A DNA stretch of 61,377 nucleotides, counting the filler, from Hausera hauseri (taxonomy: Eukaryota), in NCBI GenBank assembly GCA_046269625.1. It is 11 parts of 11 records of this genome, joined end to end, with 100 filler letters (N's around TTAATTAATTAA, not from the genome) between each part and the next. Parts side by side here need not be neighbours in the genome. Positions count along the whole stretch, not along the records: positions 40,184 to 52,223 come from JBJURY010053329.1; 10 more parts are not named here. One strand, given 5' to 3'. Positions 2,701 to 61,377 of this stretch are shown here, piece by piece (position 1 is the first letter of the stretch; every line of letters begins with the position of its first letter). The notes beneath the pieces are model-generated. The model was given only the letters and a program-made list of their open reading frames with translations. It did not search any database and was not told the origin of the DNA. The translations under genes and the position numbers were made by a program.

Positions 2701-2744
2701 GGAAATAATGAAATATGTAGCCATGTCAACATGCACTGCTTAGT

Positions 2745-4545: not shown

Positions 4546-4594
4546 ATCGATTACCCCCCCTCGGGTAGGTCAGAACCGCCATTTTCACACTACT

Positions 4595-31140: not shown

Positions 31141-31332
31141 AGTTATGATCGGTTTGCTCGGCAAGATCGGCGGATCGAAATATGCAGTATCACCTGACAT
31201 TTTATGGCACATTTCGTCAAAAGTTGAATTAGAGTTAAAGTTTGAAATACAGTTTATTAATTACAAATTTTCAAACAATTTTTCCGTTTATTTAAAATAA
31301 ATAAATTTAATTATTATTTTTAAGCCATCACT
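31141..31332 (-). repeat. 3' LTR (192 bp)
   Basis: Direct repeat of 35172-35355; termini AGTGA...TAACT on minus; adjacent polypurine tract. Confidence 0.85.
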
Positions 31333-34300
31333 TTCCCCTCTCCTTTATGATCCTTGTTCACTCTTTTCAGCCATTCCACCCTTCTTCAAATCACTCTACC
31401 ATCTTCAACTTATCAGCCCCCTGATAAGGCGAAATTTAGCGAATTATTTGTTACGGTTCTTCGAACTGATAAGCATCTTTTCTTCTTTTCTGAAGATTTA
31501 CTTTCACCAACACTTTCTGTCTAATTTCACATTTTCGTTTCCCTCTCTTCTTCCCCTTGAAATTTTCCATTAGGTTAGCTGCCTCTGTAATATGTCTTGT
31601 AATACCTTGTGTCAGTTTGCCATAATCGGTCTCTCCTGTGACTCCTCTAGCTGCGTGCAAGTTAATTTCTCGTTTAAAAACTATTTCAAACGGTGAATGT
31701 CCCGTTGTGCTTTGTACCGTGGCATTTATTGAAAATTCAATTTTCGGTAGTGACTTCCACATACTCGGCCCAACATTTCTACAGCACTGGTTACCAATAT
31801 ATCCCGAACAGTTCGGATGACCATTTCTGCTGATCCGTTAGATTGATGTTGAAACGGACTGCTGAATAATTGTTTAATTCCATATTCTTTGCAAAACCAT
31901 ATAAATTTGCTTCCTGAAAAACACTTACCGTTGTCGGTCAAGATTGATTTCGGTTTTCCAAATCTGTAAATCCATTTCACCAACATGCACTCTATAACTG
32001 TTTCTTCCTTCGGCGTCCGTATTTCTGTTAAACCCACTAGCTTTGAAATCAGATCAATAATAACCAACATATATGGATACATGCTATCTTTGTCTGCCAC
32101 ATACGCAATATCCATTACCAATTGGTCCAGAAAATTATCACACTTAATAGGAATGAACTTTTCTTGTCCTTTCTGTTGGGATTTTCCGACGTAAATATTC
32201 TTCACATTTTCCAATGACATCTACTTCTTTTGATAAACCGGGAACTGCGAAGTGACGTTGAATATATCGTTTTGTCTTCTTCATACCTGAATGGCATAGA
32301 TCTACATGATCTTACGAGTGAAATCTTTCCGCATATTTTTGGAATTACTGGTAGTCTGTAATTCTGATCTTTATATACCAGGAGACCGTCTGTCATTTCC
32401 AATTCATCGATCATATTGAGAATCTCTTTCGAGTTGTGCTTTTTTCGTCATTGCGCCGTCTAATCGACATTTTACTTGTTTTTCTGTATATTTTTCCTGT
32501 CCGTCTTTTATCCATTGCAAAGTTGACCTGACCAATAGTGAATTATTATGCTTTGCATGCACCCTTTTATCTTTCGGATCAGCATGTACTGTTTGGCCCT
32601 GAGCACACATCATCATACAACCGCGACAATCCATCTACATATCCATTCTGTTCGCCCTTCCTATATTCTAGTGTAAAATTAAAATCCGTCATATTTTCTA
32701 GCCACGTCTGGAATTGCCGTGTTATTGGATTGGTAGCGGTCTTCGTATATACCAATATCATATGGTGAAGTGCTTACGATACAGACACTGCTTAAAATGC
32801 AGCATAAACTCTTGCAATGCCAACAGTTCCATTCTGGTAACGCAACATCCTTTCTCAAAAGACAAGTGTTCTAGATGCATACGCTACTACCTTTTCTTCA
32901 ATTCCCATTTGTTAGCTGAGTACTGCTCCGATTGCACCAAGCGACGTGTCTGTATCCAAAATAGAATCTTTCGTTGGATCCATAAAGGTTAATATTGGTG
33001 CTTCACATAGTTTCAATTTCAATAGTTTGAAACTTTCTTCACACCCCCTTGACCAAAATAACTCTTTACATGTACCTTGCAAACCTAATGCAACGGCGCC
33101 GCAATGAGCGTGAAATTATTGACAAACCTTCTGTAATAGTTGGCCAAACCGAAAAATGCGCTCAACGACCGCGTACACTTTTGGACTGCCAAATTCTGAA
33201 TCTCTTACTTTTAGTTGATTTGTTGACACTCCATTATTACTAATGGTAGGGCCAATAAATATCAACTTCGAAACATCAAATCCACATTTTTGGAATTCAC
33301 TTTTAGATTTGCATTTTTCAATATTTTCATTACCTCTTCTAGTAGTTTGCAATGTCCCGAAATCTTCTTTGAGTAAATCAACACGTCGTCTATATATATG
33401 ACAACATCAGCAAACAGTAAGTCTTCATCAGTGTATTCAGAAGTTGCTGAAAAGTTCCTTGGGTCATTGAGTGACCAAATTATACTCGGTTGAAACAATA
33501 TTGTTGTGATTTCGTGCAAAAGGCTGTTTTCTCTTGGGCGTTTTCATCCTATGCGACTTGATATGCTTTACCGAGATCTATACCTCAGAAAATTCTTCAA
33601 CCACCTTACGCATTGAATAAAGTCTGACTTTCCGGCATTGGAAAAGAAATTCTCTTTGATATTTCATTTAACTTTCTAAAATCCAAACCAATTCGGATTC
33701 CCTTATCTTTCTTTTGAGCGACCACTAAAGGCGAATTCCATTCACTTTTGAATTTCCGAATAATATCCGCTTTCTCCAAGTCTCAAAAATTTTTCAATTT
33801 TACCTTTCAGATATACTGATTGTCTTCTAGGATTCAAAAAATGGTACCCACAGTTTCGATTCTGTTTTACCAGATCCGTAAACCCTAAATCGTAATCTTG
33901 TTTCATAAACACCTCCTCGTAGCGTTTTACAACTTCCACTTATTGACTATCCGCGATTTCCGGTTTTCGCATTGTTGTCACTGCTGCTATCTCTCAGTCG
34001 AGATTCACTAACGTCGGTTTTCACTAATTTCACACTAAATGCCTTTAAAACATCTATACCACCAATAGCTTCCGGCCTGATTCTTTTTACTACTATCAAT
34101 TCAATCTTATGTACTTTAGCATCCCACTCCACACTGCCTTTTACCTTCCCCAAACAACATCAATTTTCGAAGACTCCATCCAATATTAAAGCACACTTAG
34201 TTAGCTTAAGTTGTCCTATCGCTTTCCAAATCTTTTCACTGATTACTGACACACTGGCTCAACTATGCAAGAACATTTCTATTCCACACTTGTTTAACTT

Positions 34301-35171
34301 CACTTAGTCCACCACTGTTCGTCTTTCCCTGCTACTATTGTTGCATCTTGATTTTCTAAATTTCCTACGCCAACTCCACTGACGAAATGTTCACAGCAGA
34401 GTTTCTGGTGTTTAAAGTTTCCTACACGTCCTCTTCATGAAACTATTTCATCCCTATGATCCTCATACATCTCTTCCACACACATCGGATTTACCTGTTG
34501 TAATTTGAAACAGTTTCTAAATCCGTGTCCACTTTCTCCACATATCAAACAAGTTGTTTAAAGGGCAATTTCTTCTAATGTGCCCATATTTTCCACAGCA
34601 AAAACAATCACTTTTAGATAACACTTCCTCTTTCGGCGCGGGTAACTGTTTCACGCGGCAGGAGAGCATACTGGCTTCATATGAAGAGTGCGTTGGAGTC
34701 TGTCTTCTATCTGTGATCAAACTATTGGGCTAATTCGTTTTCTCAGAACTTCTTGAACGAATTCTTCTTTGTTCAACTCGGTTACTTGACGCCTCCTGAT
34801 CTCAACTGTCAAAAAATTTTCTTCTTTTTGACACACGTTGACCAATTCGACTACCTCATCGAGAGGGTTCACCTTCCTCATAGATGTAGTTTTAAATCAT
34901 ATGGCCTCTTCACCCAATGGTTTGTGCCCCGTTTTTGTTTAAAATCAGTCCACAGAATTCTTGCTTGTTCGGTTAATAAGAATTCACATAGCTCTACAAA
35001 TGGCCGTCGAAAAAATTTGTTAGCGTATATCACATCTTCTACCCATCGTTTTGCTTCATCTGTAAATGAACCATCAGATTGCCAAAGTGAAACATCATAG
35101 TATTTACGGAAATGTGCGTTATAGTCTGTATGACTAATATTACCCGGTCCCGTGATTGTGGCTTGATTGTT

Positions 35172-35355
35172 AGTTATGATCGGTTTACTCGGCAAGATTG
35201 GCGGATCGAAATCCGGAGCATTACCTGACATTTTATCGCACATTTCGTCAAAAGTTGAATTAGAGTTAAAGTTTGAAATATAATTTATTAATTACAAATT
35301 TCCCGTTTATTAAAAATAAATAATTCTAATTATTATTTATTTTTGAGCCATCACT
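35172..35355 (-). repeat. 5' LTR (184 bp)
   Basis: Direct repeat of 31141-31332; contains the gag ATG (35228-35230). Confidence 0.85.
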
Positions 35356-38700: not shown

Positions 38701-38817
38701 TTGGAGCAACATTTAAATATATAATATAAAGTATTAAATTTTTTTGAGGACAATTATGTTGCAAATTTTTCGAATCTGATATTTTGATCTTATTAAGATC
38801 TGATTAACTAGTACCAA

Positions 38818-39162
38818 CATAATTGATTCTGAAATCGTTTCAATTTACAGTAAACCTCAGCAGGCCGGTGAACTGCCGTACTTCTTTGGCAAACAGCATG
38901 GCTCTGGATGGTTGCGCACATTGGCATATTTAGCATTTCCAGTGTTGAAACGTATTGGATCCATGGTAGCAAAAACAGCACAGGATGTATCATATGAAAA
39001 CAAGTCGATTTTACCATCACTGAAGGAACATGCCTTCACAGAAATAAAAAGAGCTGCACCGGGAGTCGTTTAATCAGTTAAAAAACAATTCCTGTTAGTG
39101 GCTCGAAAAAGCGTGGTAGATTGGCTAGCTTTTAACGTCGTCGTCGTACGATTTTCAATTGA
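38818..39162 (+). pseudogene. Second copy of virion core / membrane-active protein
   Basis: QAGELPYFFGKQHGSGWLRTLAYLAFPVLKRIG; homologous to 21368-21736. Confidence 0.65.
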
Positions 39163-39177
39163 TTGATTAACAGACAA

Positions 39178-40083
39178 ATGACATATGCAAAATCTAAATT
39201 GTGTATATTCGACAAAGCCGCATCACAAGTTGTTATTGACAATGCCACATTTGAAGAAATCTACCCCGTTGATTCGGTTTCAACGGACGATAACATTGAT
39301 GTTCAATTTAACATTATGGCATCGGCCAATGAATACCTAAATTTGAGCTATACACTACTCTATGTAAAAATCATTGTTAAAAATGATGCATCAACGGTTC
39401 TCGCTGCAAAAGACACTGTCACACCCTCCAATTACCATTATCTCACACTGCTCCAGGAGGCTTCACTGAATCCAAATAGCGTCAAAATCGAAGGCAGCAC
39501 CAGTATATACAGTATTAAAGCACTCATTGAAACGGCGCTGAATTACAGTGCAGACACGAAAACGACTCATTTGACGAAAACCATCGGATATGATTGTCAG
39601 GCATGGGTGGCAGAATAGAAAGCTTTTACAATGTGTAGACCGCTGTACTTTGACTTTTTCGACCAGCCTAAATACCTACTGCCCGGTGTTAAAGCCATTA
39701 TTCGGCTGCAACAAAGCGACAATGCCTTTTGTTTGAAAACCGCAGTTGCAAATCTCAAACCCATGATCAAGATTACCCAGGCACAATTATACGTACGTCG
39801 TGTAAAGTAGAATCATCTGTGCTCATGGGACATCAATTGGGCTTGGAAACACAAAATGCCTGTTACTTATTACAACACATGGAACTCGTCCTTTACACCA
39901 TACCCAAATGTTCAACTACTTTTTACAACGATGCACTATTTGGGGACATGCGATTGCCGAAATTTGTGCTCGTTACATTTCAAACGACTGTTCAACAAAC
40001 GGGCATTTATACCACCGATTCGGAAACGTTTACCCATAGCAATGTGAATTACATCAGTTTGGGTCGGAATGCGGATTTCGTTG
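39178..40083 (+). pseudogene. Polinton major capsid protein, second copy
   Basis: MTYAKSKLCIFDKAASQ, EYLNLSYTLLYVK, DQPKYLLPGV, LFGDMRLPKFVLVTF; runs into spacer. Confidence 0.9.
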
Positions 40084-40499
40084 NNNNNNNNNNNNNNNNN
40101 NNNNNNNNNNNNNNNNNNNNNNNNNNNTTAATTAATTAANNNNNNNNNNNNNNNNNNNNNNNNNNNNNNNNNNNNNNNNNNNNTAGAACAAATTTCGAAG
40201 TTGTGAGCGAGCTAAGTATTTCGTATTTCACACAAGCATAAAAGATAGTCGCTTCTTCTAAATTTTGTAACTCTATCTTTGTTGGCTCCCTAATCATGTT
40301 AACATATGAGCCGGAAAAAAAGAAAAAACGCACCTACAATTACATTCTCAATGGCGAGTGAGAAGAAAAATATGACTGCATGAATTTAGCCATAGCATCA
40401 TATAAGTTATATATTGAGGGCGGCCCTAATCAACTCCCACTATATAACAATAAGTTAATTAATTTGATCGCTTTTTAATGCAGGTAGGGATTACCGTTC

Positions 40500-41330
40500 T
40501 CGGTAACCAGAATGTGCCTTAATAATTTAAATATCAATTGTTCAGTAACCGCTGGTACTGCGTGCAAATCCTGTGCCGTAGATTAATTAATTCTCCTCTT
40601 AACTATCTAATTTTAACTGATATTTTAACACTTAGTGTAGTCGAATCGATATTAAGAATCGAAGAGAAACTAAGTAAATTTAAGTCTTTTACAAACAAAA
40701 ATATAATTGACAATACACATGATACCTGGAACACCCAGTTTCCCAATAAAGTCTACTGATACTGAATGGAATTTTCCTTCGGATGTTTCACCACTGGAAA
40801 TTTCTCTGTATCTCAATAACTGATAATGTGAATATCCAACTGCTGCTTCAGATCTGTTTCTAAATACTGATTCCGATTTCTCTGATACTAATTCTCGAAA
40901 TATGAATACTGGTTAGCTATCGATTGCTGCTTGTATCTGTAACTATCTGTAACTGACTAACTGTATCTGTAACTGTAGGCAGCAGCAACTGTTCAACTGT
41001 CAACAACAACAAATAACAACTACCGCACTGATCTACGTCGATGCGCTTATATATTACGCTGTGTGCAGGAATTTTTGTTTTCGCTGAATTTTCCGAAGGT
41101 ATTTTCGATTTGATAAGAATTTTCGGATAATTTTCACAACTAAATTCTTCAAATTTCTACACAATTATCAATTTGATTTCCACAAATTCACATAATTCAT
41201 AAAAATTCCATAAAATATTTCTAATCACTAATAATACCATTTTCCGATAATACCAAAATTTTACTTTGGTACATCAATCTCACTTGATGTAATTCTTAAC
41301 TCTAATATGTACAGCTATGTAAAATTTCTC
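40500..41330 (-). repeat. Putative 3' LTR (boundaries uncertain)
   Basis: Non-coding; minus-strand TATATAAG at ~41046-41053 followed ~20 nt later by TCAGT; pyrimidine tract (PPT complement) tttctcctccct at 41325-41336; second LTR not in the window. Confidence 0.35.
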
Positions 41331-41459
41331 CTCCCTGAGCGGCATCCTCGCAGGAGTGGTGACTCCCAATTAGTGTCGGTGCCGTAGGCCCAGTCTACTC
41401 CGGAGACTACTAGAACCTTGTCTCCTCCGCTTCTAACGCGTAATTAGTGCTAGGTTGGT

Positions 41460-42720
41460 TTTAAATCGGAACTAATCTATTACACTCGCCATTTGAGAAA
41501 TATTTCAGTCCATCCGCTTCTGCTCGACATACTGGACACGTGGTTTTGCTGTTATCCAAAGTCCATGTTTCAAGGCATGTACGACAATATTTGTCTGAAC
41601 TCTTTGTTATCTAATTTTACATAGCCTTGCAAAAGGTTTTCTCTACAAACGAGGCAGGTATCTTCATCTTCATTAGTGTTTTCGTCCTCAAGGTCTACTT
41701 TTGGGATATTTCTAATCTGTTCAAATACGAGTCCATCGTGGTCGTAGTATAGGTAACTATGAAGTTCATTTTGGTGGATGTTGATCGAGCTTTTACGGGA
41801 ATCATAGTCTACTGGAACTAATGTCCAATCTATAACTGTCTCTTTGTCAAGGTCAGGAATTTTATCCTCCTTCTTATACGCCTGATATTTCTTTTTCCAC
41901 ATTTCTTTGATTTGGGCATCCACGGGAATTGAGAGTTTTCTTATTCTCTTTTATTTAAACATTGGGGCTAAATACTGTCCTATCTTTGGGTTTTCCCAAA
42001 CGTATGCACCTTCTGGAACATCGCGTATTCCTCCATTATTCACATAGAATATCGCCTCATTTATCTTTGGACGACTACAATACTCTGCTGTAACCAGAAG
42101 TTTTGGGTAGTCCTTAGTTGTTTCTTTTGATTTCTTTTTCTTAAGCATATTTACTCCGGTGAATAACTGGGTGGAGTCATTTTCTGATTTTCTTCGGGGT
42201 GTTTGGTTCCTAATTTTTCTCTGAACCCTTTCGGACTGGATTGTGTCCATTGTCTTTCGGGTTTTGGTTTCTTTTTCTTGTTCTTTTGGTTTTCTACTCC
42301 TTTGGAATTGGGTTTTCCTCAGGTGATTTTGTCTCTTTTATTTGTTTCCTCCGTTCCTTTTGCTCTTCACGGTTTTTCTTTTTAAATATATAGTTGTAAC
42401 GTGATAATTTACTCTTATTCTCAGGTATCTTGGTTTCAGTTCTCTTCTCTCTAGGGTCGTTGATCTTTTCGTGATAAAATATTGGAATTTCTGGTGTTTT
42501 AAGAGTTGCTTGTGGCTTGGCATCCCTAATTTTAACTTCGGAGCTGGAATTGTAATTGATGCTGGGTTTGTTCTCTGTTTTTGGAAAATTCGTGACTGAT
42601 TTGGAATTAGATTCTTCTATACTGATTCGATAACTGGCTCGTGGTGTAGATTCAACAATTCTAAGGGGAGAATAAGATCTGAAATGTCTTCTATATCTCG
42701 AGCTCAATCTTTCTGCATTA
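41460..42720 (-). pseudogene. Basic accessory protein with C-terminal RING finger
   Basis: DTCLVCRENL...(frameshift)KYCRTCLETWTLDNSKTTCPVCRAE; upstream K/R/S-rich ORF pieces 41570-42707. Confidence 0.65.
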
Positions 42721-42759
42721 GTTGAACTTCGTAAGTTTTGACTTGGGTTGTCGGGGATC

Positions 42760-43867
42760 CATTCATGTCCTATTTCAATCCTGCGTATATGTAGCGCAAA
42801 TACTGAGAACGTTGACTTGCTGTTAGTAATCAGCTTATTCTGACATGTTTCCCGCTCGTTGCTTCGAGCATTAACTTAAATCGGCCTTCAACGGTCAGGG
42901 GTATGTAACCGTTTCTTTCTTTGAGAGTCTGTTTCATTTGTTCCATTATTGTAGGGTGAGTTTCTGTTTCTTGTATTCCTGCCATATGCGTGATGGGTAG
43001 TTTCAGTTTTTCCACAACTCTTTCTACTTGATACCCGGCAAGGATACATCCATATAGGCAGTGGGTCAATTCTTCTCGGACTAATTTGATATCTTTACCG
43101 TGGACTAATTGTTCCTTTTTTATTTCCGTAACTTCTGAGTAGGTTTCTCATATTTGTTTTCTCGGGCTAATGACTTAAATAAACTTCGATTCGTCCTATT
43201 TCTCGTACAGATACGTCGACCGGAATATCATTTCCGTCATCTTCTTCTCCATAGTTCAACGATATTATTTTTAGAATTTCTAACATGTTGTACGAGTCTG
43301 AAGGATTGTAGATGTTCTTCTTGATCTTTTTCGGTAGGTTCCTGTCTAAATTGAAGGGGCGGTAATCGAACAAAGGGTGCATTTTCATAGGTCATTTCGA
43401 TCATTAGTTTAACTGGTAATGTGTCAACTCTGAATTCTAATTCGCAATTGTGATGATGGAAAGCTTCACTGTTGATCGAGAGGATACTATATCGATGTTG
43501 CCTTCCTTGCGAGGAATCCAAAATTTGATCCTTCAATCGATAATAGATTTCTCCGCCTGCAAAGTGAATAAAGATGCTGTGATGAGACTGTTTCATATTG
43601 GATTATTTGTCTCAAAACATATGCTTTTGCATCTTTGTCTTCTCTCATGGCAAATAAGTGTGCCGTTCTATTTTCTTCAGTGGTTCCTTTAAGATTACTG
43701 GGAATCTCACTAGTCTGCTTGTATTCTACAAATGTTTTCCCTTGTAATTCTTTATTGATCTGATGAAATATTGACTTAGATTGGGGAATTAGCACGGTTG
43801 CATATTTTTGCAGAAAATCGTCGATGCTACGTCGGCTTGTTTTCATGGTTACTTGAATACTTACCAA
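42760..43867 (-). pseudogene. Orphan accessory ORF(s)
   Basis: Overlapping same-strand ORF pieces 43487-43867, 43237-43596, 43167-43388, 42830-43069 consistent with one frameshifted gene; no motif recognised. Confidence 0.45.
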
Positions 43868-43966
43868 TCTGGGAAATAAACGACAAGGATTTATCTTAAA
43901 ATAAATCGTGGTTTTAAATTAAAACCAGTTCGTTTTTTGATGATAGAATAACCCAATCTGTAGTTG

Positions 43967-45295
43967 TCAGGTTATTTTATCGTAGGGGTACTCTTGGGTT
44001 TCCGATACTGTTAACCCCCGTTTTATGATTTCACGACGCTTATTATGACAGTTTTTGGTAACTAATCGAAAAGTCGCTATGAATATTATTAGCGCAAACA
44101 TTGATAAGCTTACTATCATTTTGATTGGCAAGGTTGTTAATTCTTTTAGTTTTACAGTTGTACTTACTGTAGTTATGTCAATTTCTGCGTCTCGATTCAA
44201 ACGGGGTTTAGTTTGCACTTCATCTAAGGTATGTAATGCAAAGATTAGACTCTGCCTGTCTTTTGCGTTTATTTGTATTATATATTCTGTTTTCGGTTTT
44301 AACGAATCGCACGTAGTCTGATAAGTGTTTTTCAACAGGGTTACCCTTTGATGAGTGTACATGGTACGGCAATTTATCTCGTCATCATAGTTGAGTTTTT
44401 CATCCACGGAAAACATTATTTTGCGCTGTTGAGTCAGACATTTAACAGGAATTGTAACTGAATCTCTTATAAGCGTTTCCCTCGTCGCAGTAATCTTAAC
44501 AATGGTGCTTACTCGAGTAGTTGGTTTCTTCGTTGTCGTTTCGGCTGCGATTTTCCAGATTCTATTGTTCGGATAATATCTTTCTAGATATATACTCGAT
44601 CTGTCCATTTTGATTCCATAAAGGTTAAAATGGATTCTATATTCACAACCTTCTGGTATTTTATAACACGAATTTGGTCTGGTATTTATGATACCACAAT
44701 AATTTGGAGATGGGCTCATCTTGTTTATTTTGACAATTTGAACTGAAATCTCTTGATTGCTGGGCAGTCTCCCCTTGGTTTTCACATTGATACATTTGTC
44801 CTTCTTTTCTTCCGATATACCAATTATGTTTTTATCCAACACCCATTTGATTGGATCTGTTGATTGAATTATGTCGTTAAAGTCTATTACATTGATTCTG
44901 TGGCCTTATGGCTCCTTGCGTGCGCCCATCGTTCTTATAATGCATCCGTTTCACAAAAGTGTAGGTGCTTCCGTAATTTATAGCACAACATTCTTCTTGA
45001 AATCCATAAGGCAGGTCACAGTGGGTCACTACCTCCTGAGTCGTGTTCCAAAGAATTACTTGGTATTTCACTGATCTCCTGACCGGTCTGTCTGTTCTGA
45101 ATAGTACACAGTTTTTTATCGGATCTATACTCCGGGCCTTAAAGCGATCTAGGGTATTTAGATCTTTCCGCTTCATGCTTACCATCTCGTTTTTCATTCA
45201 TCGGTTTAGTAACTGAACCAGTCCGGTCTGAGCTTTTGTTTCTGGAATATATGAAGCGATTAGAGACAGTGAAAGACTATTTGTATGTAAAACAT
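43967..45295 (-). pseudogene. Type-I membrane protein: Cys-rich ectodomain, FN3-like domain, Thr-rich stalk, TM, short tail
   Basis: Signal-like MFYIQIVF/LSLIASYIPETKA-QT; DSLKPKTEYIIQINA (FN3 signature); TM MIVSLSMFALIIFIATF; tail ends EYPYDKIT. Confidence 0.65.
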
Positions 45296-45329
45296 AGGTC
45301 TGATAATTATGGTCTAAGCTTTTCTTCTT

Positions 45330-48300
45330 CTGTTATCCGGTTTATGATTCGTTTTCGCATTACTAACACACAAATTGTATCGTTTATCTGGTTTTATTTC
45401 TGTTTTCACGACTCATTGTATCGATACTACTTTTTCTTTTCCGTTTCTATTAATATAAACCGTGGTAGGTGTTGTTCTGAGGACTTCATATGGTCCTCTT
45501 GCAGTGCGTGTAAGCTTTAACGGGCTGCCTCTCCTGGCTACGGGGTAATGCACATAAACCCAGTTTCCGGTTTCTATATCATGCGGTTTCGCCTTCTTAT
45601 CATATTGTTTTTTAAATTGTTCCTGATATTCTAGGGATAATGTTTTCGCTACTTTTCAACACTCTTGTAATCTGTTTTGTAAGACTTCTGCAAAATTTGA
45701 CTCTAAGTCCTCGAGATTCGCTTCATATGGAATCATTCCTAAGTCCGTCGGCAATGTTGCTTCTCGACCATACATCATAAAGAATGGTGTGAAACCGGTG
45801 GCAAGATCTGGTGTTGTATTAATGGCGGATTGATTCCCTTCTAAAAATTTATCCCAATCTGTCTGATCTTTTGCGACTACCGTGGACAATATTCGTATAA
45901 CGGTGGCATTCATACGTTCCACCATTCCGTTGCATTGAGGGTGATAGGTTGTTGTAGTTAATCTTTCAATTTCAAATATTTTAATGATTTTGTCAAACAA
46001 CTCACTGGTGAAATTCCTTCCTCGATCCGTTAGTATGTGTTCCGGTGGTCCATATCTTCAGATAATTTTCCTTACTAACGCTTCTGATAAGGTTTCTGCT
46101 TTTTGATCGTATAATGCTACTAATTCTACAAAATGAGTTAAACGGTCGACGCATGTTAATATATATCTGTTATTCCTGGACGTCGTGGGTAGCGGTCCTA
46201 CGATGTCCATTTACATGGCTTGCATTGGTCTGTCTGGTACGTTTATGGGTTTTAGCTCTGCTATGTAATTTCGCGCTTTTCTCTGCTTTGGTTGCACACA
46301 CTTCGCAGGCACTTACTCAGTTTTTCACATCAATATATATACTTGGTCAGTAGTATTTGTTAAGTACCCTTTCTAAAGTCTTTTTCCAGGACATGTGTCC
46401 GGCTAAATACGAGTCGTGCTCAGCCGTTAAAACTTGTGTTCGTAAAACTTTGGGTATAACTACTAGTTTCCTTTTCACTTGTAGCGGGAACACAATATTT
46501 GTGTCCGTGTCGCCGTAAGTGTTTCCTTAACTGATGACCTTCAGGCTTTACATCTGTTTCGGTGTGCTCAATGATTTGTTGGATAACCTTATTCTTCTTT
46601 AGTTCGATGGAAATTCTGATTGCTTTATCTAATGTTAGGATTCGCTGTCTGTCTACTAACTCTTCGGGCATACTTTTCTTCATTGTCATAATAGCACTCG
46701 TTTTTGTCTTCAGTCTAGATAATGCATCGGCATCCACGTGCTTAGTGCCGAGCTTGTATTGAAATTCAATATTGTATATTGAGATTTCTTCAATCCATCT
46801 ATTTAACCTGCATGTAGGGTTGTTTGCTCGTCCTTTCAAAGTTGTGACTGCTCTGTTGTCGGTCACTATTATTATTCTCTGTCCATAAACATAGACATTG
46901 AAGTGTCTTAAGGCTTCTTTTACAGCTAATGTCTCTAATTCCGTTGCCGAATAATTTTTTTCAGCTTTCTTTAAGGAGCGTCCTCCGTAAGCGATTGGAT
47001 GTTCCAATTCTTTCTCTTCGCGTTCTTGTCCTAGTTCGTATCCGATACCTTCTTTACTGGCATCTGTCTTAATAATAAATGGAAGATAGAAATCGGGATA
47101 TCTCAACACTGGCTCACTCGTTAATCTTTTCATTATTTCATCGAACTCTTTTTGTTCGACATCCGTCCATTTCCATTTGATTCCTTTTTTAGTAATCGAT
47201 ATAACGGCGCGTTTATTTTTGAATTATCAGGTACATATATAGCGTATTACCCACATAAGCCTAGCCAATGCCTTAATTCTTTTTGGTTCTGGGCTCCATA
47301 CAGTCCAAAATTTTATTCAACAACGATTTGTTTGGTTTTGATTCCCCTTCTGCAACTATATGGCCAAGGTAGGATACAGCATTTTGAGCCAATTTACATT
47401 TCTGTGGGTTTAGTTTTAACCCGGCTTGTTCTAATCTCACAAGTGTGTCTTCAATATCCTTTATATGCTCTTTTTCCGTTTTTGATGCAATCATTACGTC
47501 GTCTAAGTACGCAAATGCATGCTCGAGACCCATTAATAATTTATTCATCATTCTGGTGAAAATAGCTGGTCCAGTGGTAATTCCAAATGGCATAACATTA
47601 AACTCATATACTCAATAGTGAGTTTTAAACGCTGTTTTATAGCGGTCTTCCTCTTCAATCTCTACTTGCCAGTATCCGGATTGTAAGTCCAGAGTGGTGA
47701 ACTATTTCGCTCCTGAAAGTCTATCTAATGCTTCTTTTACAGACGGTAGGGGAAATGAATCTTTCGTCACGAGAGTATTTAGTGCTCGGTAATCGATACA
47801 AAATCGATGTTTTGTGTACCTTTCTTTTTGACCATAAGTATAGGCGAGTACCAAGATCTGAAACTTGGTCTAATGATATCGATCTTAAGCATCCGCTCTA
47901 CTTCCTTGGTTATCTCATGTCTTAAATAATGCGGTGGTGGATACCATTTTGGCACTTTCTGTTCTTCGAGATCAATTTCGTCATTGGTATCAGGCTTTTT
48001 CTTAAGTGGTATAGTTAACTTTAACGTTTTTACTCGGCCGATGTCTTCTTCATTCTTAGCAATAATTGAGTTGTATCGACATAGCAATTCATAAAACTGA
48101 CAATAGGCTTCTGATGAAAATTTAGTCTCTACATGGTGAAGAAACTGAGCATATTTGTATGGTTTTTCTTCAACAGTTATTGCCGATACTTTATAAGTGT
48201 GATGTAAGGTAGTGTTAGCATATAATGTTACTGGAATTGGCGCATTATTCACTATTCTAACAGGTATCCGACCCGATGCTACACTGGTTAATATATTACT

Positions 48301-48900
48301 CAGTATTATGCTTGGTTTCGGCGTGTCTTTCGGCTCGAAGTACACCGGTAAATCGTCGTCTTGATAAATTTGTGCAAATATTAATAATTACATTCTGGGC
48401 GGAATATTTTCGTCAACCGGAATTCATACTTTTCCGATTTCTCTCTCCTTATTAATTTTTGTTCCTTTTATTGGTCCGAATTCGACTAGTTATGAGGCGT
48501 TCTATCTACAGCTATAGTTGGTAGCCTTTTTAATAGATTGCATCCTAGTACTACGTCATCCGTTAAGTGTTCCATTATCGAAAATTCATGTTGGAATGTT
48601 TGTTCCATTATGTTGGCGTTAAGGTTCCATTTAAATCTCGGCCTTGATTCTTGTCCAAAAGCTCCTATGCTTCTGGGGTCGGTTGCTAGTAGTAAGCGTA
48701 GTTGATTTCGTAACGTTTTCGGTATTGATCCGTCCTTTATAAAGGATCTCTCTAATCCGGTATCTATTAACTCGTATACTTCCCAACCTTCAATGCTAAT
48801 TTTAGCGAAGGGTCTGCCTTCTTTTACTTTGGGTTGTCTAGCGACGGATATTTTGTACCCATTTATACTAATTTCTGGTGCTTTATCCTCGGCTACTTAT
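45330..48900 (-). pseudogene. pol: Ty3/Gypsy pol (protease, RT, RNase H, integrase with GPY/F)
   Basis: LIDTG (~48760), [84 protein letters not shown] (~45490). Confidence 0.95.
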
Positions 48901-49068
48901 TTTAATTCCTCAGTGAGTACAATCCATTATTTACACCATTTTCATTATCTCGATCTGGTGCATTGATCAGTGTCTCCCGGGTGTTTGAGTTATGGGAAGA
49001 TTGCATTCGCGGATTGTCCCAAACGGATGATTTAGTTTCCATATTCCGCGATATCCTTGGAGAATAAA

Positions 49069-51269
49069 TCACTTTGCAGTCACCCACCGGCTGGCGGCAT
49101 GATTTAGATTTTTCTTTACTTCTGTAATTTTCCGTAACACACCGTATTGTTTCGTTTCTTCATAAGAATCTTCATAGCTGAAAGGCTTTTGATAGGTTTC
49201 CGACCTATAAGAGTTGATGGATCTTTTGTCGCAATCTTCATACATTGGTGCTGAAGGAGGCAACATAGGCAAGGGTGGTTTAATGACCAAATATCCTTTC
49301 TGTCTACCTAAGTTGGAGACCAGGTCTCCTCCATTAGGCTCGTCATCATCTGAATTGTTTCTTTGTCGTATGAAGAATACGGGTCTCCGCTTCCATTTTC
49401 GATTGTCATAGCCGACATGTCTTTTGACATCGCTTTTCCATTTGTCTTCTTCATATGCACTCAGGAATTTTCCGAAGGGCGTTATAATCGCGGTCAAAAT
49501 TTTTCAGGAAAATCTAGGCAGGGTAAAAATTTCATAGCCGTTAATAACAGATTGAATTACCGCTTTAATTGGTTGTACCAAGGAATAGATGGCTAGGAAT
49601 CCTGATGCGGCTTGCCCAAAAGTTAAAAATCTTCCTCATATTTTGTATAATATCTCCGTAGTAACTTTTTGATAATGGTTGGCACCAATCAAGGATTCCC
49701 ATTTCGCTTGATGGCGAATATCGTCTATCACTGACGTCATAGCCCTATTCGGTTCATGTGTACGCTGACGAGGAAAAGCTAAGAATTGTCTGAAAGCTTC
49801 AATTTCCTTTGGGCAGTAAATCCATTTACTTGCGGTGTCAATGAATTTATCGTCTGCAATACCTTTAGCAAATTCGTACCTGTTAGTTTACTTGGTGTGG
49901 CGATTATTCCTCCATTTGGCAGACTTACCCAGTCTGTCTCGCTTTTTTTAAACATAGGTTCCCCTAATCCTGATTTACATTCCTTCAAAATTGTTGGTTG
50001 CGTCTAGTTTTCCAATAAAACTCTTGTAAGTGGCATTGCTAATCGAGGCACATTCTGATACAATACAGGTGGTTCTTGTATGCAACGTTTCTCTTCCATG
50101 TTTATGGATACATCTCGTTTTTCGCACTCATATGTTAGTAGGACTTCTCGGGTGACTCGTCCGAAAATACCTTCTTTCATTGGAATTACAGGTGAAGCTA
50201 GATCTGGATTGGCGTATATTAAGGCCAATTTGGTTCTCATTCTTTCTATGTCCAACTTACAGTCGTTCGCGATCATTTTGTGGTATAGTACTGCTATTTC
50301 GGTCTGTCCCTTATAATAAAAGTAGTCATCTCTATTTTTCAAGTAGTCTTCTATCTTCAGATCTTGTGTCTCCAACGTAAAAGTAGTTATTTCGGATTCA
50401 GCTACAAAAATGCTTCGTAGTTAGTGGCGTACATCAATACGTTACATCATGAGAGCATTTGCTTTTTAATAAACTTTAGCCCATGACTGTCAGAAATCAA
50501 TATCGTCGGCGTGGAGTTTTCGGCCACGTCCTTCCTTGATCTGGCGTTGGTGTCTACTGTATATACATATCCTTTTCCTGTAGTTTTGTTAAAACTTATC
50601 TCTTTTATCCTGATAAAATTAGTCACTTGCAGGGGGTGGCGCCCAAATAACTATCGAGCTTTGGAAAGTGCAAGCTCCATCTTGAATACGGCACCTCTGA
50701 TTTTCAGTGTATGTCTTTGTAACACTGTGGAACATTACCTTTTGATTTCTCATTTCTGTCTCATAAAAATCGACTATTACAACTCATGCTTCTTTTCCCT
50801 TACCAGTGTCATATTCTGCTCCGTTACAGTGTCCTGTGTGCATGTCTAATTTTCCAATTGCTACTTTATATGCTCGAATTATTTTCCCTTGCTGAACTTC
50901 CAATTTTATACCGTCCCATCGCAATGTTCCGGTTTTTTTGGCCTGTTTACATTGTTGTCGCTCTAAATTCATGGGAATCAGTGGAGTCGTTGGTTGTATT
51001 ATCGACTAGTGTCCATAAATATTCTCACAGTAGAAAATGCTTCGTGACCTCCGTAACATACATTCTATTCCGTTTAACGCGACTAATTCACGCTGCTGAT
51101 ACAGGAAGCACTCCTTCTCAGTTGTTACTAGCTTGTGTGGTCTAGCATCTTCGCATATTTCTAAATCTATCAAAGAGTATTTTTGACCTAGTTTGAATTT
51201 ATCACAATCGTATACAATGATCGCTCCAAATTGTCTTACCAACATCATGAGCGTTATTAACTTAATCAT
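49069..51269 (-). pseudogene. env: Envelope glycoprotein, chuvirus-like / gB-related class III fusion protein
   Basis: Signal peptide then AIIVYDC, SL.D...C, C...RSIFYC, C..AKKTGTL, GHCNG..Y, LY..M....C.L, P...., G......EV...YEC, CIQEPPV, MPLTRVL, C....PMF....W, hydrophobic TM region ~49490-49640; Cys spacing matches Chuviridae-type glycoproteins; frameshifted. Confidence 0.8.
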
Positions 51270-51275
51270 CCAATT

Positions 51276-52223
51276 TTATTTATTTTTTCGCGCGGGGCTG
51301 GGTAGCAGTAAGTTTCTTACCATATCCTTTATTCTAGTAGAAGGTCCGGTTTTATCTTTGTCATCGAATAGTTTGAACCAATTTATCTCTCTATGTATTT
51401 TTCTAGAAGCTTTTCTGATCAATTCAGTGGTTCTATTGAACTCGTTTTCCTTTAAGGGATTTTTTTGATTGCCAAGTACAAAACTATCTTCCACAATTCT
51501 TCTTTAGTGTTCTCCACCATTATTTCCTCAATTACGGCTTCACCTAGTAGATTACTTTTGTTTATCCTAAATCGAAATGTTCTCATTATCCTTGCCGCGT
51601 TATATACTGCCTTTTCTCGATCATATAATAGATCGTTTCTTGATCCTAAATAGTTCAATATTTTTATAATGTTTCTCAGCAACTCGTTCAATTCTTCGCT
51701 ATTAGAATTAATCTCGGGCATGGATAGTTGCCTCAGTTCCCGGATCAGGGCTGCATTTTGTTCAGTACCATCTCTTATTTTCCTTGGCCTTCCGATTAGT
51801 CGTCTCTGTTTCGGCGCAGTTGGTATCGTTTCATTAACTGATACTAAGTTATTCTCGAACTGCTCCTTATCTTCCTCACTTTGTAAGTAGTCAAAATACA
51901 TGGCGGGGTCTCTAGTCCCCATAATGCGTCCTACGGAATGTTCATCCCTTGCTTTCCTTACAGCCTAGTCTTTTGTTTGTTCATCGGTAATTATAGCCAT
52001 TATTCTATTTGATTCCTCCGGAATAATCCCAACATCGATTAGTAGCTCGGGTTTGTCCAGTATCCCACCTAGCAAATATAATCGATAATTTACTTCGTCC
52101 TTCCCATTGTTTTGTACTATCCATTGTTTTACTTCTCTAACCGATGTTATCGTTGTGCATTCAATTTCTCTCTTCCATTCATTCAGCTGATACCTTTACC
52201 TTAATCGTCGTTTCGGGTTTAAC
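51276..52223 (-). pseudogene. ORF with ubiquitin-like domain upstream of env
   Basis: Own translation of 51970-52205: IKVKV/YQLNEWKREIECTTITSVREVKQWIVQNNGKDEVNYRLYLLGGILDKPELLIDVGI...RIMAII; in frame (one TAG) with track ORF 51452-51922. Confidence 0.6.
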
Positions 52224-52323
52224 NNNNNNNNNNNNNNNNNNNNNNNNNNNNNNNNNNNNNNNNNNNNTTAATTAATTAANNNNNNNNNNNNNNNNNNNNN
52301 NNNNNNNNNNNNNNNNNNNNNNN

Positions 52324-55364: not shown

Positions 55365-56168
55365 TTAAATCACCTTAGATCGATTGCTTGGCCCAATACC
55401 TTTCCAAGGAACATACACCTGAGGAAAGTTTCCCAGTGAAGGACGCACAGGTTTCGATTCAGGCCCAAATCTGCCTCTATGGGCGTACAAATATCTGGAC
55501 AGCGCTCTCCCCTCTACGTCTGGGATGGTGTAGTAGTAGTCTGACGCTCTGTCAAAAATGCGTGGCACGCTGACTCCAGGGTAGGAATTTCTCTCCAGAG
55601 CCCGAGCTCTGGCGAGTCGACCAACATCTTTTCTCAAGATTTTCGGCCTGTGAGCCCATAGCTGAGCTGACGCAATTTCTGGTTGATAAAATGATGCAGA
55701 TCCGTAAGAGGGCTCTAAAGATCTTGCTCTAGCTGACCTCAAAACGTGTGACCTGATGGGCCTGTGAGCCCATAGCGTGGCAGTAGCTAGTGGTGCCGGT
55801 GGAGCATAGAGAGGTTGAACATGTCTTGGCGGCAGCGAGGAAGCACGGACGTATCGTGGCTCTGGCGGCGGGACGGAGCTAGCACGTGCTCTAGTGTACC
55901 AAGGGGCGTCTGCCTGTGAGAGAACGACTGGCTTAGAGGCATAGATGTTACTATTAATAGCTTTATCACTACTACTACTCGGTGCCAACAAGATCACTAC
56001 TGGTCGTGCAGGGGATTGTCTGGTCAGCAAGGGTTCAGCTACCTGGCTGTAGTGCTGCTGATGGACTTGCTGAGCAGGGAAAGGTCGGAGCACGGGAGGG
56101 ACTGAACTAGCCCGCACCCTCCTGCTGACAGCAGCTACCCGCGGGTTTACGTGCAGCTCTGTGGACAC
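55365..56168 (-). CDS. Terminal exon of host Pro/Arg/Ser-rich repeat protein
   Basis: Open GC-rich frame in AT-rich context; acceptor TTTCAG at 56169-56174; repeats RASSVPP/RASSLPP and LWAHRP...RAR. Confidence 0.65.
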   Translation of the reverse strand: MSTELHVNPRVAAVSRRVRASSVPPVLRPFPAQQVHQQHYSQVAEPLLTRQSPARPVVILLAPSSSSDKAINSNIYASKPVVLSQADAPWYTRARASSVPPPEPRYVRASSLPPRHVQPLYAPPAPLATATLWAHRPIRSHVLRSARARSLEPSYGSASFYQPEIASAQLWAHRPKILRKDVGRLARARALERNSYPGVSVPRIFDRASDYYYTIPDVEGRALSRYLYAHRGRFGPESKPVRPSLGNFPQVYVPWKGIGPSNRSKVI

Positions 56169-56346
56169 CTGAAAGTACAAGATCTAGCATTCAGGAGGAG
56201 TCACTCAACACACCAGGGGATAGAGGGGTTGACAGAGGGAATTGGAAACACAGACAGGCAGAAACGCAAACAGGGATGATATGACAATAATGATTAAAAG
56301 AATACATAAACATTTGAACTAAACCTTCTTTGTCTTACATTATAAT

Positions 56347-56513: not shown

Positions 56514-59381
56514 CCTTGCGCCATTCATCTTCTTGTTTCCACGACATGCTCATATTATCCTTATGCCCCTGAAGCATGTTTTCAAGCTTGAGCAATGTCT
56601 TCAAGTCGTTTCGTTAAATGTGCTGCTGCGCCTGGACCTCTAAATATATATGGTTCACTGTCCAGTCCTTTGGCATACATACAATATGAAGAGAGCTCAT
56701 GATACTGGTATGCCGTTGTGCTACCGTGTTGGGGATTAGGACTGCTACTCTGAACTGGCGGGAAAATAGCTTCCAAGTCGCAATAGATAACTATTGGGAC
56801 CTTGATCTTCTTCTCGAACTCCTTGAATTCAGTGTAGTTTTCCTTGGGAAATTCTGGCCTTACACAGTAATTGTTTCTGCAGTACATATTGTGCTCTGCA
56901 AGCTTGGTCACTGCTGAATCACCATTGAAATTAGACAGGCACCGCTTACATATTTCTATTTGTCCATGATGATTCGTAATTTGGGATCTGACTAGACGTT
57001 CAAAATTCTTTATATAAACAATGTTTCTTTTCTCCATCGTCTAGTAGGAACAGATCCCTATGATCTTCCAATTCATTATCATATATCTGCAGGGGATAGA
57101 ATTTGTCCTCCTCATCCAATCCAAAGATGTTGGTTGATATGTTGTTGATTCGACTGAACGTCTTAATTTCATCTAAGGATGGAGGGAATGTGATACATTG
57201 GAAGTCATAATTGTGCTACACATCCTTATATTGCCAAACTCGTGAAGCATTATGTTGATCAGGCACGAGTTTTGATAGAATGACATACATGAAACACATG
57301 TTGTCACTATTATGGAAATTGACATGCTTTTTTATTAGCGATCCAATCAGGGAGCTGAATATATGAACTACCCCGCATTGGGGAGAATCTTTGCGCATAC
57401 ACAAGCAATCTCTTGATGACTGCCAGAGTCCATCCGCTCTACTTACTCTGGCTCTCATCGGCTTCACGGATCAGCTTTGATTGCTCTTCATGTAGCCATT
57501 CTACTATATTGGTGACTTCACAAATGGTTCTATTTCTGGTCTTGAAGGCCCTTTTGGACTCTTCGCCATCAACATGGACGTATGTGGCCTCAAGTTTCAT
57601 ATTAGCTTTAAGGGCCTGGAGCTCAGCTATGTTGTGCTGGAGAATCCCTATTGTTTCTTCCTCTGTATACTCCAGGAACTCCTTGATGGTTGTTTGACCA
57701 GTTGCATCAATGACATATTTGCGACATTTCCTCTTTAATGCTGCAGCATTAACTGGCCTCTGTCTTTGATTCTGATGGAGCCGCTATGCCTGATGCGCCT
57801 GATTGGCCTGATGCGCGTTTTAGTCCTGCATATGGCTGTACTGCTGCAGCAGGCTGTGGTACTGCAGTCTGTGCAACTGGCTTATGTTCATTAAAGATGA
57901 TCTTTGACTTTGATGTGAAGTCAGTCAAATGATGTTTGTGATCTTCATAAAAATGTATGTATTCTCCATAACATACAGCCTCACATCCTATTGAATTTGT
58001 GTCCATAATAGCTCCATATGGCATTGTGGCAATTCTGAGGGTTGTGTATTGCACATGGATTCTATGTCATTGGATTCTTCGAATAATGCATGTTTGACCG
58101 AATATTAGAGTTCGAATAGGTAAGTATTCGACATGTATGCTCGATTTCAAATATCTAGCATCATATTCCGATTCAACATACATGACTTCCTATCCCGCCC
58201 CGCTTATAGATTTATCGATTTTCGCTTCACTGGGCTTCAAATGCAGATTTTGTTTAATTCGAAATATTGATTTTATATCTATATAGTACATTTTCATGGA
58301 ATAATTTTTATGCATAAGGGGGTTTTGATATATGAAAAATCTATTGCCGCTGTTAGATTTTTCGAATAGTTCTAACTTCGATATTCGAGCTCGAAAATAT
58401 TCGAATTTCGAATATCTGACTTGAGATTCGAGATCGCCATGATCGATTTCCTATATGTCCCCGCTAATTATAATATCGAATTTTGACTCCTTACGACCTA
58501 AAAAGCCTATGGGAAGTCTGTCCCAGTTGCACTTTGGATCGATATTATTCGAAAACTAATCGATAAATTGAAATTCTAACTGCACATTCATGTACTGCAC
58601 TATGTTTGTTCGAATGCACTCAGTCACATGTCCTAATCATCAATACTGAAAATATCGAAAAACCGATATTATTGATTTTTGCACACCTGCACGTGTTTTT
58701 GCACTGCATAGTATATATCAAGGTGCATCTCGATGTGCTCTATCTACCTGCAATTGACCCCAATCGATTCCATCAATCCTATGCTGCAGTGACAAATGTG
58801 AAAAGTGAAAAAGTGCCTTAGCAACCGTATCCAAGAGCACACTTGACTCGAGTATTTCACTGAACGATAGGACATCAAGTGCTGCACCCGCCAGTACGTG
58901 TCATATTGATATTATTGATTGTCATTTTATAGCAGAAAGGCCTATGTACGTTCTGTCCCAGTAGGAAATTATATGAAAACCAATCAATGTATTTAAATTC
59001 TAACTGCACATTGACACAGTCCATCATGTGTGGTATCGATTGCACCCGGTGCCAGGTGCTAATCATCAATATTCGGATTATCGGAAATCCGATATTATTG
59101 AATTTTGCACACTTGCACGTGTGCTGCACACCTGCCCTGTGCAGCAATCGATGTGCACTATAGATTAGCACTGTCCCATATATTCGATCAATTGTGCAAT
59201 GTGTAGCGATCGATTTGTCAAATGTCCCAAAATGTGCATAGCAACGGTGCCAAGGGCACAGTCGCCTAGCACACTACCGATCGATAGTGCAGTGTGCACT
59301 ATCGATGGACACATGTGCAAATTGATTTATCGATTCGTACACCCCCCGGAGTGTGAGGCAGACTTCCCGTTTTCCCCTACT
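56514..59381 (-). mobile_element. Polinton family A copy 2 (pPolB N-terminal part + subterminal repeats), end ...CCCCTACT
   Basis: Clear homologue of ~700-4594 (KIKVPIVIYCDLEA, SYCMYAKGLDSEP); homology ends at CTACT 59377-59381. Confidence 0.85.
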
Positions 59382-60915: not shown

Positions 60916-61074
60916 AGAAATATATATATACTCTATAATTTAAATTAAAATTCACTTAAATCGCACCTTATACTGCTCCATCTATGGTGATGGTGGTTGT
61001 TGTGGTGGTCTCAGGGCTCCACTTACTCGGCTATAAACATTTGCCATACTCAGCACTTATTTTGTATAAATCAA

Positions 61075-61344
61075 ATGGAAGAATATATTGAAAGTGAAAT
61101 TCATAGATTGACCGATGATATTTTGACCGGACATGTGTTTGATGTACAGTTGTTATGTGAGCTCACAGAAACGGGAATAATGAGCAGGCGAGAGTATATT
61201 GAATTAATAGTCAGATCTCTCTTCGTAAAACGTATCAAAGGTGAAATGAGACGAAAACGACAACGACGTATTAATTTCCTCATTGGATTTGTATTTACTG
61301 CTTCGCTTTGTATTGTAATGAAAAAGTTGATTTACCGTATTTAA
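61075..61344 (+). CDS. Small protein with basic patch and C-terminal TM helix, divergent from pPolB
   Basis: Intact 89-aa ORF MEEYIESEI...RRKRQRRINFLIGFVFTASLCIVMKK; TATAAA at ~61032. Confidence 0.5.
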   Translation: MEEYIESEIHRLTDDILTGHVFDVQLLCELTETGIMSRREYIELIVRSLFVKRIKGEMRRKRQRRINFLIGFVFTASLCIVMKKLIYRI

Positions 61345-61377
61345 TCAGAAATTTTGTTATGTTTGTTTTCGTGAATC

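Follow-up and report, generated by a model that had tools for sequence, protein, structure and literature searches.

The closest described systems are Ty3/Gypsy long terminal repeat (LTR) retrotransposons that carry an envelope gene (env) between gag and pol. The text of PMC6431247 describes for Burro1 a polyprotein of 4,873 amino acids (aa) in one frame, comprising gag with CCHC knuckles, MATH, Ubi2/SUMO-like (PF11976) and BCL2-like domains, env, protease (PR), a dUTPase-like domain, and reverse transcriptase (RT), RNase H (RH) and integrase (IN), together with BIR and ankyrin domains; the env, in frame between gag and pol, matches mononegavirus fusion proteins. Burro elements are described as having an internal region of up to 25 kb and as exceeding 30 kb in all. 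The RING and BIR module of Burro1 is cited in the text of PMC13465017, where the element is termed planarian-specific, and where anti-apoptotic cargo of the Burro family is reported to promote regenerative growth (Lee et al. 2026, cited therein). Elements of the order GAG-ENV-POL with a gB-type env are given only for Nematoda, Bryozoa and Platyhelminthes (Chary and Hayashi, PMC13524379), and in the table of that paper the 10 rows for gastropods are without exception of the ENV_F type, as is every one of the 11 bivalve rows considered out of 36. The locus described here lies in an assembly listed as Hausera hauseri (GCA_046269625.1), within a stretch of 61,377 nucleotides (1-61377, the window) composed of 11 unrelated short contigs with spacers of 100 bases (44 N, TTAATTAATTAA, 44 N) between them, across which neighbours are not genomic neighbours. 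The finding concerns contig 9 (positions 40,184-52,223), where all features are on the minus strand.

Contig 9 probably contains a Ty3/Gypsy LTR retrotransposon of Burro-like design, one of many copies, in an assembly taken to be that of a gastropod; this copy is dead, truncated at its 5′ end, and of value only as a marker of its family. Its order on the minus strand is a ubiquitin-like (UBL) domain, a probable Bcl-2-like domain, Env, PR, a dUTPase-like stretch, RT, RH, IN, a fibronectin type III (FN3) membrane protein, a probable exonuclease-like open reading frame (ORF), RING, and a repeated non-coding end. An earlier interpretation of this DNA without database searches (the sequence-only reading) had proposed the order UBL, class III-type glycoprotein, PR-RT-RH-IN, FN3 membrane protein and RING, which Pfam, the ESM Atlas and profiles of relatives bear out, and its lead to Burro was well chosen, the published core order of Burro1 matching the window. 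It overlooked the probable Bcl-2-like domain, the decay of the copy and the single polyprotein, and the layout, for which it knew of no description, is already known from the core order of Burro1 (PMC6431247, main text) and the GAG-ENV-POL elements of three phyla (PMC13524379, main text). The features, in window coordinates, are as follows.

52224..52323, no strand: assembly spacer of 44 N, 12 bases and 44 N, which cuts the contig and the element; gag end and 5′ LTR lie beyond it.
51968..52222, minus strand: ubiquitin-like domain with a broken start (ESM Atlas, relatives' profile).
51330..51700, minus strand: probable Bcl-2-like helical domain, frameshift near 51,480 (weak match to relatives' profile).
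49470..51275, minus strand: Env with a Monjiviricetes-type ectodomain, several stops and frameshifts (PF24664, tblastn collinearity, hydrophobicity).
48489..48896, minus strand: aspartic protease with LIDTG at 48,770 (RVP E 5e-6, motif).
48070..48400, minus strand: dUTPase-like linker between PR and RT, weak (profile against PDB).
46700..47830, minus strand: RT (YLDD at 47,509) and RNase H (TDAS at 47,067), broken (Pfam, motifs).
45416..46470, minus strand: integrase with H2C2, core and GPY tail, broken (Pfam, tblastn, alignment with L002).
43970..45380, minus strand: post-integrase membrane protein (FN3 profile, tblastn, hydrophobicity).
42833..43846, minus strand: first accessory ORF in four pieces, probable homolog of a DEDD exonuclease ORF (profile, hhalign).
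41951..42875, minus strand: low-complexity coding pieces rich in K, E and R (no Pfam match, no match to L001-L005).
41461..41950, minus strand: ORF ending in a RING-like finger, CxxC at 41,656, 41,586 and 41,538, frameshift near 41,600 (zf-RING_2, motifs).
40500..41460, minus strand: non-coding 3′ end, possibly the 3′ LTR (end of strand bias, repeat depth).

Scanning of 28 pieces against Pfam returned Monjiviricetes_fusion, RVP, RVT_1 (E 5e-23), RNase H (E 8e-33), integrase H2C2 (E 3e-8), rve (E 0.002) and a partial RING, in this order. The pol order of Ty3/Gypsy elements, PR-RT-RH-IN, is thus present in the window, and the RT is 44-52% identical to that of relatives over 176 residues. A tree of RT-RH built without Burro sequences gave no resolution, its branches being long and an outgroup without env nesting within it, and was not used. 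Env lies directly upstream of PR, matches PF24664 (Monjiviricetes_fusion) with E values of 1.1e-15 and 2.2e-12, and by hydrophobicity has a signal-like stretch from 51,269 and a C-terminal membrane region at about 49,635-49,500. In the relative P0004, env has a weak match to Borna G (E 0.017). An alignment search with env matched no solved class III structure by sequence, and a word-based search with its N-terminal piece gave no match among longer proteins.

Upstream of Env, the UBL piece had no Pfam match of its own; in the ESM Atlas its first match was the ubiquitin family (0.94), with Rad60-SLD at 0.92, and the Atlas names for it PF11976, the Pfam family cited for Burro. A profile of the UBLs of eight relatives scored 19.5 bits against the window, a score reached by none of 2000 shuffles; searched against PDB, this profile gave only matches at E 0.29-0.96, mixed with unrelated LEDGF matches. 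Pfam matches to Bcl-2 at the position corresponding to the helical domain are weak and were seen in P0004 (E 0.00096), P0052 (0.0015), P0001 (0.055) and P0011 (0.2), and weak ubiquitin matches between gag and env were seen in P0001 (E 0.031), L002 (0.018) and L003 (0.0047); the Pfam scan showed neither domain there in P0017, L005 or P0009. A first profile test on unjoined fragments of the window did not detect the Bcl-2-like or the post-integrase part. For the linker between PR and RT, a profile of the window, L001, L002 and L005 had a dUTPase (E 0.39) as its sole PDB match at E ≤ 5, and the Pfam dUTPase family had no match in the relatives scanned.

Relatives were gathered with an env piece (51 proteins at E ≤ 0.001, of which 18 were domain-scanned), in a second protein search (five long proteins, three of them new) and in a metagenome scan (five loci from 569 candidate stretches). 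All nine that reach RT (P0002, P0010, P0017, P0021, P0053, P0054, L001, L002 and L005) encode env before PR-RT-RH-IN in one ORF of 2,146-3,703 aa, and a gag or CCHC domain precedes env in P0001, P0003, P0017, P0052, L002, L003 and L005, in which the 5′ end is present. The order is CCHC, ubiquitin, Bcl-2 and env in P0001, and capsid, CCHC, Bcl-2, env, PR and ankyrin in P0052, the only relative with ankyrin. Intact relatives encode, in one frame, Gag (capsid, CCHC knuckles), UBL, Bcl-2-like domain, signal, class III-type Env, transmembrane (TM) segment, protease, dUTPase-like domain, RT, RH, IN, signal, FN3 ectodomain and TM segment. No relatives were found among viral contigs for RT-RH or env, or among GTDB genomes for P0010. 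The latter (HBK71150.1) is a 2,627-aa env-pol-FN3 polyprotein, entered at NCBI as a protein of a Flavobacteriaceae metagenome-assembled genome, and is almost certainly of animal origin, its DNA having been placed in a bacterial bin. Several relatives (L001 2-10279, P0003, P0053) have three aspartic-protease-like domains, the window copy showing one, and some of these have C2H2 fingers between env and pol or an extra protease after integrase.

The UBL, env, pol and FN3 parts of the window are best read as pieces of one such ORF, and not as the separate ORFs of the sequence-only reading. That reading was correct in placing no gag between env and protease, as expected from the relatives, in which gag precedes env. 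The absence of gag is no feature of the element: gag is lacking in contig 9 only because the contig ends at 52,223, just upstream of UBL, and it lies upstream in relatives. An arrangement in which env is a separate gene before pol, gag is missing or elsewhere, and the UBL and FN3 proteins are separate ORFs made from spliced RNAs would fit the stops between the parts of the window copy and the lack of gag in contig 9, but is highly improbable, since RT, RH and IN are likewise cut by stops and frameshifts, the RT-bearing relatives are single-frame without exception and the contig ends before the place where gag would lie; L001, L002 and L005 already largely refute it.

Behind integrase, a module of signal, FN3 and transmembrane segment in frame is common to the window and five relatives. 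In the window it begins with a weak signal-like stretch at about 45,320, in the same frame as the IN tail, followed by a cysteine-rich ectodomain, a membrane-proximal FN3 domain at 44,422-44,264, a transmembrane helix from 44,116 and a short tail. Against a profile of eight FN3 repeats from five relatives, anchored by eye, the window domain scored 32.8 bits (0 of 2000 shuffles, E 6e-8), the best of 1422 fragments, and by tblastn the post-IN region is 40.5% identical over 37 aa to L002. The ectodomain of L002, modelled with a mean pLDDT of 54.5 (60-79 in the domains), resembles tandem FN3, with a best Foldseek E of 5.5e-7 and VIA Z 10.0 (rmsd 2.6 over 83 residues). Because of the relatives' profile, an IN-tail motif seen in most relatives and also kept in the window, and the same-frame hydrophobic stretch, the FN3 protein is assigned to the element and, most likely, to its polyprotein. 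Profiles from single relatives were reached by 24-43 of 1000 shuffles at best, and a single-sequence fold of the window FN3 ORF was poor (pLDDT 40.8); Atlas matches of this ORF were below 0.9 and serve as a lead only. Two further repeats upstream, proposed by eye to make three in the window, found no support (1662 and 271 of 2000 shuffles).

In L001, L002, L005, P0002, P0010, P0021 and P0053, the frame continues after IN into a signal-like segment, then an ectodomain and one more hydrophobic segment; env is flanked by hydrophobic segments on both sides, and at least two more follow IN. In L005 (7700-8518) and at the C-terminus of P0021, the signal-like segment after integrase is followed by an ectodomain that by appearance is unlike the FN3 type; the post-IN slot may have been kept while its cargo was swapped.

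In relatives, the accessory ORF behind the polyprotein matches ISG20/ISG20L2 (E 7e-14), and this ISG20-like DEDD exonuclease ORF is accompanied by a coiled-coil ORF in both L001 (10617-12663) and L002 (11375-13470), in reversed order. The first accessory pieces of the window, compared with the exonuclease ORF of these two loci, gave a collinear profile score of 14.2 bits (0 of 2000 shuffles), and the first accessory ORF is probably homologous to it; tblastn gave no match for the exonuclease ORF in the window, where the catalytic acidic motif of DEDD exonucleases is not recognisable. The coiled-coil ORFs of the relatives had no match in the window. The RING assignment comes from a zf-RING_2 match (E 8.8e-5) on the second half of the split ORF, and no BIR was seen upstream of it in the window. 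The case for its membership in the element is made by strand bias, its abutting position and repeat depth: in contigs of run X1, which may be the source sample of the assembly, the bin of this ORF has a summed contig depth of 142 against 9-12 for the contigs of the copy itself. This measure, which is not copy number, fits a repeated part of an element without proving linkage. The non-coding end, 40500..41460, may be the 3′ LTR; positions 40,988-41,389 are highly repeated (summed depth 1,044 against about 9-12), and a purine run near 41,335 and a TATA-like box near 41,053 were noted by eye. A second copy of this end was not found in the window, contig 9 keeping one element end, and L001-L005 showed no LTR pair.

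The coding strand is evenly A-rich (A 0.33-0.47) from 52,223 down to about 41,400, and the element measures at least 11.7 kb in contig 9, the loci of relatives being bounded by their contigs at 9-15.5 kb. The sequence-only reading spoke of more than 11 kb of gap-free ORFs on one strand, of which the single strand and the domain order stand; coding sequence extends over about 10.8 kb, no stop-free stretch exceeds 312 codons, and alignment with the intact 3,703-aa polyprotein of L002 gave nine segments with repeated frame changes and 22 internal stops, some of these being cases of a segment running across a frameshift. The stops and frameshifts are attributed to decay because RT, RH and IN are also cut, and the breaks are not a slip of the assembly because run X1 contigs, which may come from the source sample itself, match without difference across several of them (49,327-50,170, 50,850-51,688 and 45,622-46,243). 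In total, 10,304 contig pieces of this run were placed on the stretch at ≥80% identity, covering 30 of 30 bins, 6,104 of them less than 90% alike, and a large, old, multi-copy family is therefore indicated.

That contig 9 is a chance mosaic, in which an ordinary Gypsy pol came to lie beside an unrelated env, FN3 and RING through misassembly or nested insertion, is very unlikely. The assembly is repeat-rich and made of short contigs, no run X1 piece among those listed spans the whole stretch, and the relatives do not share the RING ORF; yet their order is the same from UBL as far as FN3, probably even as far as the exonuclease ORF, zero-difference run X1 contigs bridge 48,857-49,353 and 44,974-45,607 in addition to the two Env breaks above (50,850-51,688 and 49,327-50,170), and the strand bias is uniform, confining doubt to the last 1.5 kb of coding sequence (K-rich pieces and RING). 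The proposal of a large, complex, env-bearing Gypsy element and not a nest of unrelated insertions is upheld.

Several observations weigh against the reading of contig 9 as a Burro-like element with a single polyprotein. The window copy shows collinearity with its relatives, and a single frame is not demonstrable in it; the nine RT-reaching relatives include near kin (P0002/P0053, P0017/L005; also P0004/P0052/L001 among relatives) and represent fewer independent lineages. The Bcl-2-like stretch scored 6.4 bits against a profile of five relatives, which 13 of 2000 shuffles reach, and the putative class III label of Env derives from the Pfam family and the text of PMC13524379. The post-IN signal is weak in the window copy (KD 1.51), and the module is not universal, P0054 being without it and P0017 ending within IN. 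For the exonuclease ORF, hhalign (read through) scored 27.5 against a maximum of 23.7 in 100 shuffles with a probability of only 7%, and of 0.4-1.8% for single pieces; no RING ORF is present in the DNA available behind L001 and L002.

As described in PMC6431247, Burro1/GYPSM1 and Burro2-4 of Schmidtea mediterranea share with this element a Gypsy pol, an env of mononegavirus type in frame between gag and pol (the frame being that of the relatives), Ubi2/SUMO-like then BCL2-like domains before env and a dUTPase-like domain between PR and RT (both of the latter weak in the window), and accessory ORFs with RING-type ubiquitin-pathway domains, along with ankyrin in P0052. Judged by the order of its domains, the element is Burro-like and would work as Burro does. 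It differs in that the relatives' polyproteins are at most 3,703 aa as against 4,873 aa, with no evidence here of a 25-30 kb element, that the host is apparently a gastropod and that the window copy is decayed. MATH, BIR, Smc and AIR1 domains were found neither in the window, the 5′ part of the element lying beyond the contig edge, nor in the scanned relatives, and the signal-FN3-TM module and the exonuclease ORF are unmentioned in the text of PMC6431247, its figure excepted.

It is possible, though on the unlikely side, that the same element and mechanism belong to a Gypsy lineage other than Burro, with the gag-env-pol order and accessory domains acquired by convergence or module swapping; this concerns membership only and is compatible with the mechanism proposed below. 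The domains missing here would fit, as would the main-text statements that GAG-ENV-POL elements are non-monophyletic (PMC13524379) and that Burro1 is planarian-specific (PMC13465017). The one-frame order of gag-CCHC, UBL, Bcl-2, mononegavirus-type env, PR, dUTPase-like domain and RT is, however, long and specific for a convergent origin, and the PF11976 named by the Atlas is the family cited for Burro.

Other described elements share parts of this design. BEL/Pao elements with a chuvirus glycoprotein are known under the name Anakin. As cited in the text of PMC13524379, such elements are alike in the kind of glycoprotein captured by an LTR element, and unlike in having a BEL/Pao pol, not a Gypsy one, and in lacking the accessory modules of the window. 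The GAG-ENV-POL errantiviruses of the HSV/gB type share an env between gag and pol, a class III (gB-like, chuvirus-like) glycoprotein, which in the window is a family-level Pfam match, and a Ty3/Gypsy pol; the terms Burro, fibronectin, Bcl, polyprotein and dUTPase are absent from the main text of PMC13524379. Bdelloid rotifer LTR retrotransposons with an extra ORF3 (PMC5408684) also have a dUTPase domain, a captured DEDD-type exonuclease accessory ORF and small transmembrane ORFs, whereas their env is paramyxovirus-like and a third ORF, and their abstract gives no UBL/Bcl-2/env polyprotein. The accessible parts of PMC8532177, PMC13238120 and PMC6238403 add nothing on the architecture of such elements. 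Literature on the post-IN FN3 module, Monjiviricetes glycoproteins in LTR elements, Burro and gag-env-pol order, with most subscription journals, Repbase and figures outside its coverage, gave no description of the FN3 module or of a gastropod host, and both the presence of such an element in a gastropod and the FN3 membrane protein that follows integrase in frame are new as far as the literature could be searched. Nor was a four-pass polyprotein yielding two surface proteins found described in the literature searched.

We tentatively propose, at somewhat less than an even chance, that Burro-type elements are a widespread enveloped Gypsy lineage reaching molluscs, with a four-pass polyprotein and a two-part entry apparatus, consisting of a class III fusogen encoded ahead of pol and, following integrase, an FN3 attachment protein of host origin. 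The mechanism itself belongs to the main reading of contig 9: by the logic of its signals and anchors, the polyprotein chain would be threaded through the membrane of the endoplasmic reticulum four times, leaving Gag, UBL and Bcl-2 in the cytosol and Env in the lumen; Pol, with an anchor on each side, would be cytosolic again, and the FN3 protein luminal. Signal peptidase would free two type I membrane proteins, while Gag and Pol parts would be released by the protease of the element, so that capsid, enzymes and envelope would be made 1:1 at one membrane, where assembly and budding could take place. Env, given the family to which it belongs, would fuse the budded particle with a neighbouring or germ-line cell, and the FN3 protein may bind cell surfaces or matrix as an attachment factor, the favoured role though about evenly balanced with that of a receptor decoy or of adhesion on the producing cell. 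The UBL, Bcl-2-like, exonuclease-like and RING parts may help the host cell to survive or weaken its defences, the anti-apoptotic and ubiquitin roles being suggested by analogy with Burro1. The polyprotein strategy would be comparable to that of alphaviruses and flaviviruses, and the division between binding and fusion to that of herpes- or paramyxoviruses. Flanking pol with two membrane-crossing modules in one frame would be an unusual co-production of capsid, enzymes and two surface proteins, and the FN3 module suggests that an LTR retrotransposon here carries a protein devoted to attachment. A family so far regarded as planarian-specific would become broader with a Burro-like UBL/Bcl-2/env design present in several metagenome contigs and a gastropod assembly.

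The host assignment comes from contig 10, contig 9 itself being without a host gene. An exon of a repeat-rich host protein at 55368-56183 (minus strand) has best matches that are 59-66% identical; five of eight homologs carry names, and because all of these are gastropods (Arion, Bulinus, Candidula) the assembly is taken as that of a snail or slug. That contig 9 derives instead from a flatworm or another parasite or passenger of the snail, and says nothing on molluscs, is improbable. Its lack of a host gene would allow this, and Burro-type and GAG-ENV-POL elements are known from flatworms, but over the full length of the stretch run X1 contains a family that is very large and diverged, with a depth of about 8-12 for the copy's own contigs, and the GC content of contig 9 (0.32-0.40) is similar to that of the other contigs of the window.

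Other decayed elements are present in the window. At 24657-28841 (plus strand) lies the 5′ part of one of the same kind as that in contig 9, in which a C3HC4 RING (E 4e-8) is upstream of a retrotransposon gag (E 8e-4). Its last stretch, at the contig edge, shares 43% identity over 145 aa with the sequence that precedes the UBL in P0020, and the piece may represent the gag end of a sister family. Another decayed Gypsy element, a small one at 31141-35301 (minus strand) has no env match and a probable LTR pair of about 197 bases, 84% alike and about 4 kb apart, and an ordinary Gypsy RH-IN fragment lies at 9500-11347 (plus strand). An open frame of 268 codons at 13356-14159 (minus strand) has no convincing Pfam match. 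The stretches at 20564-22290 and 38816-40083 are related (80% over 933 bases) and without a Pfam match, and by eye we take their ORFs to resemble Polinton-type capsid genes. Finally, 1-5200, 15550-20247 and 56514-61377 are related decayed pieces, 78-83% alike, with matches to type B DNA polymerase and endonuclease VII, presumably as in Polinton/Maverick elements.

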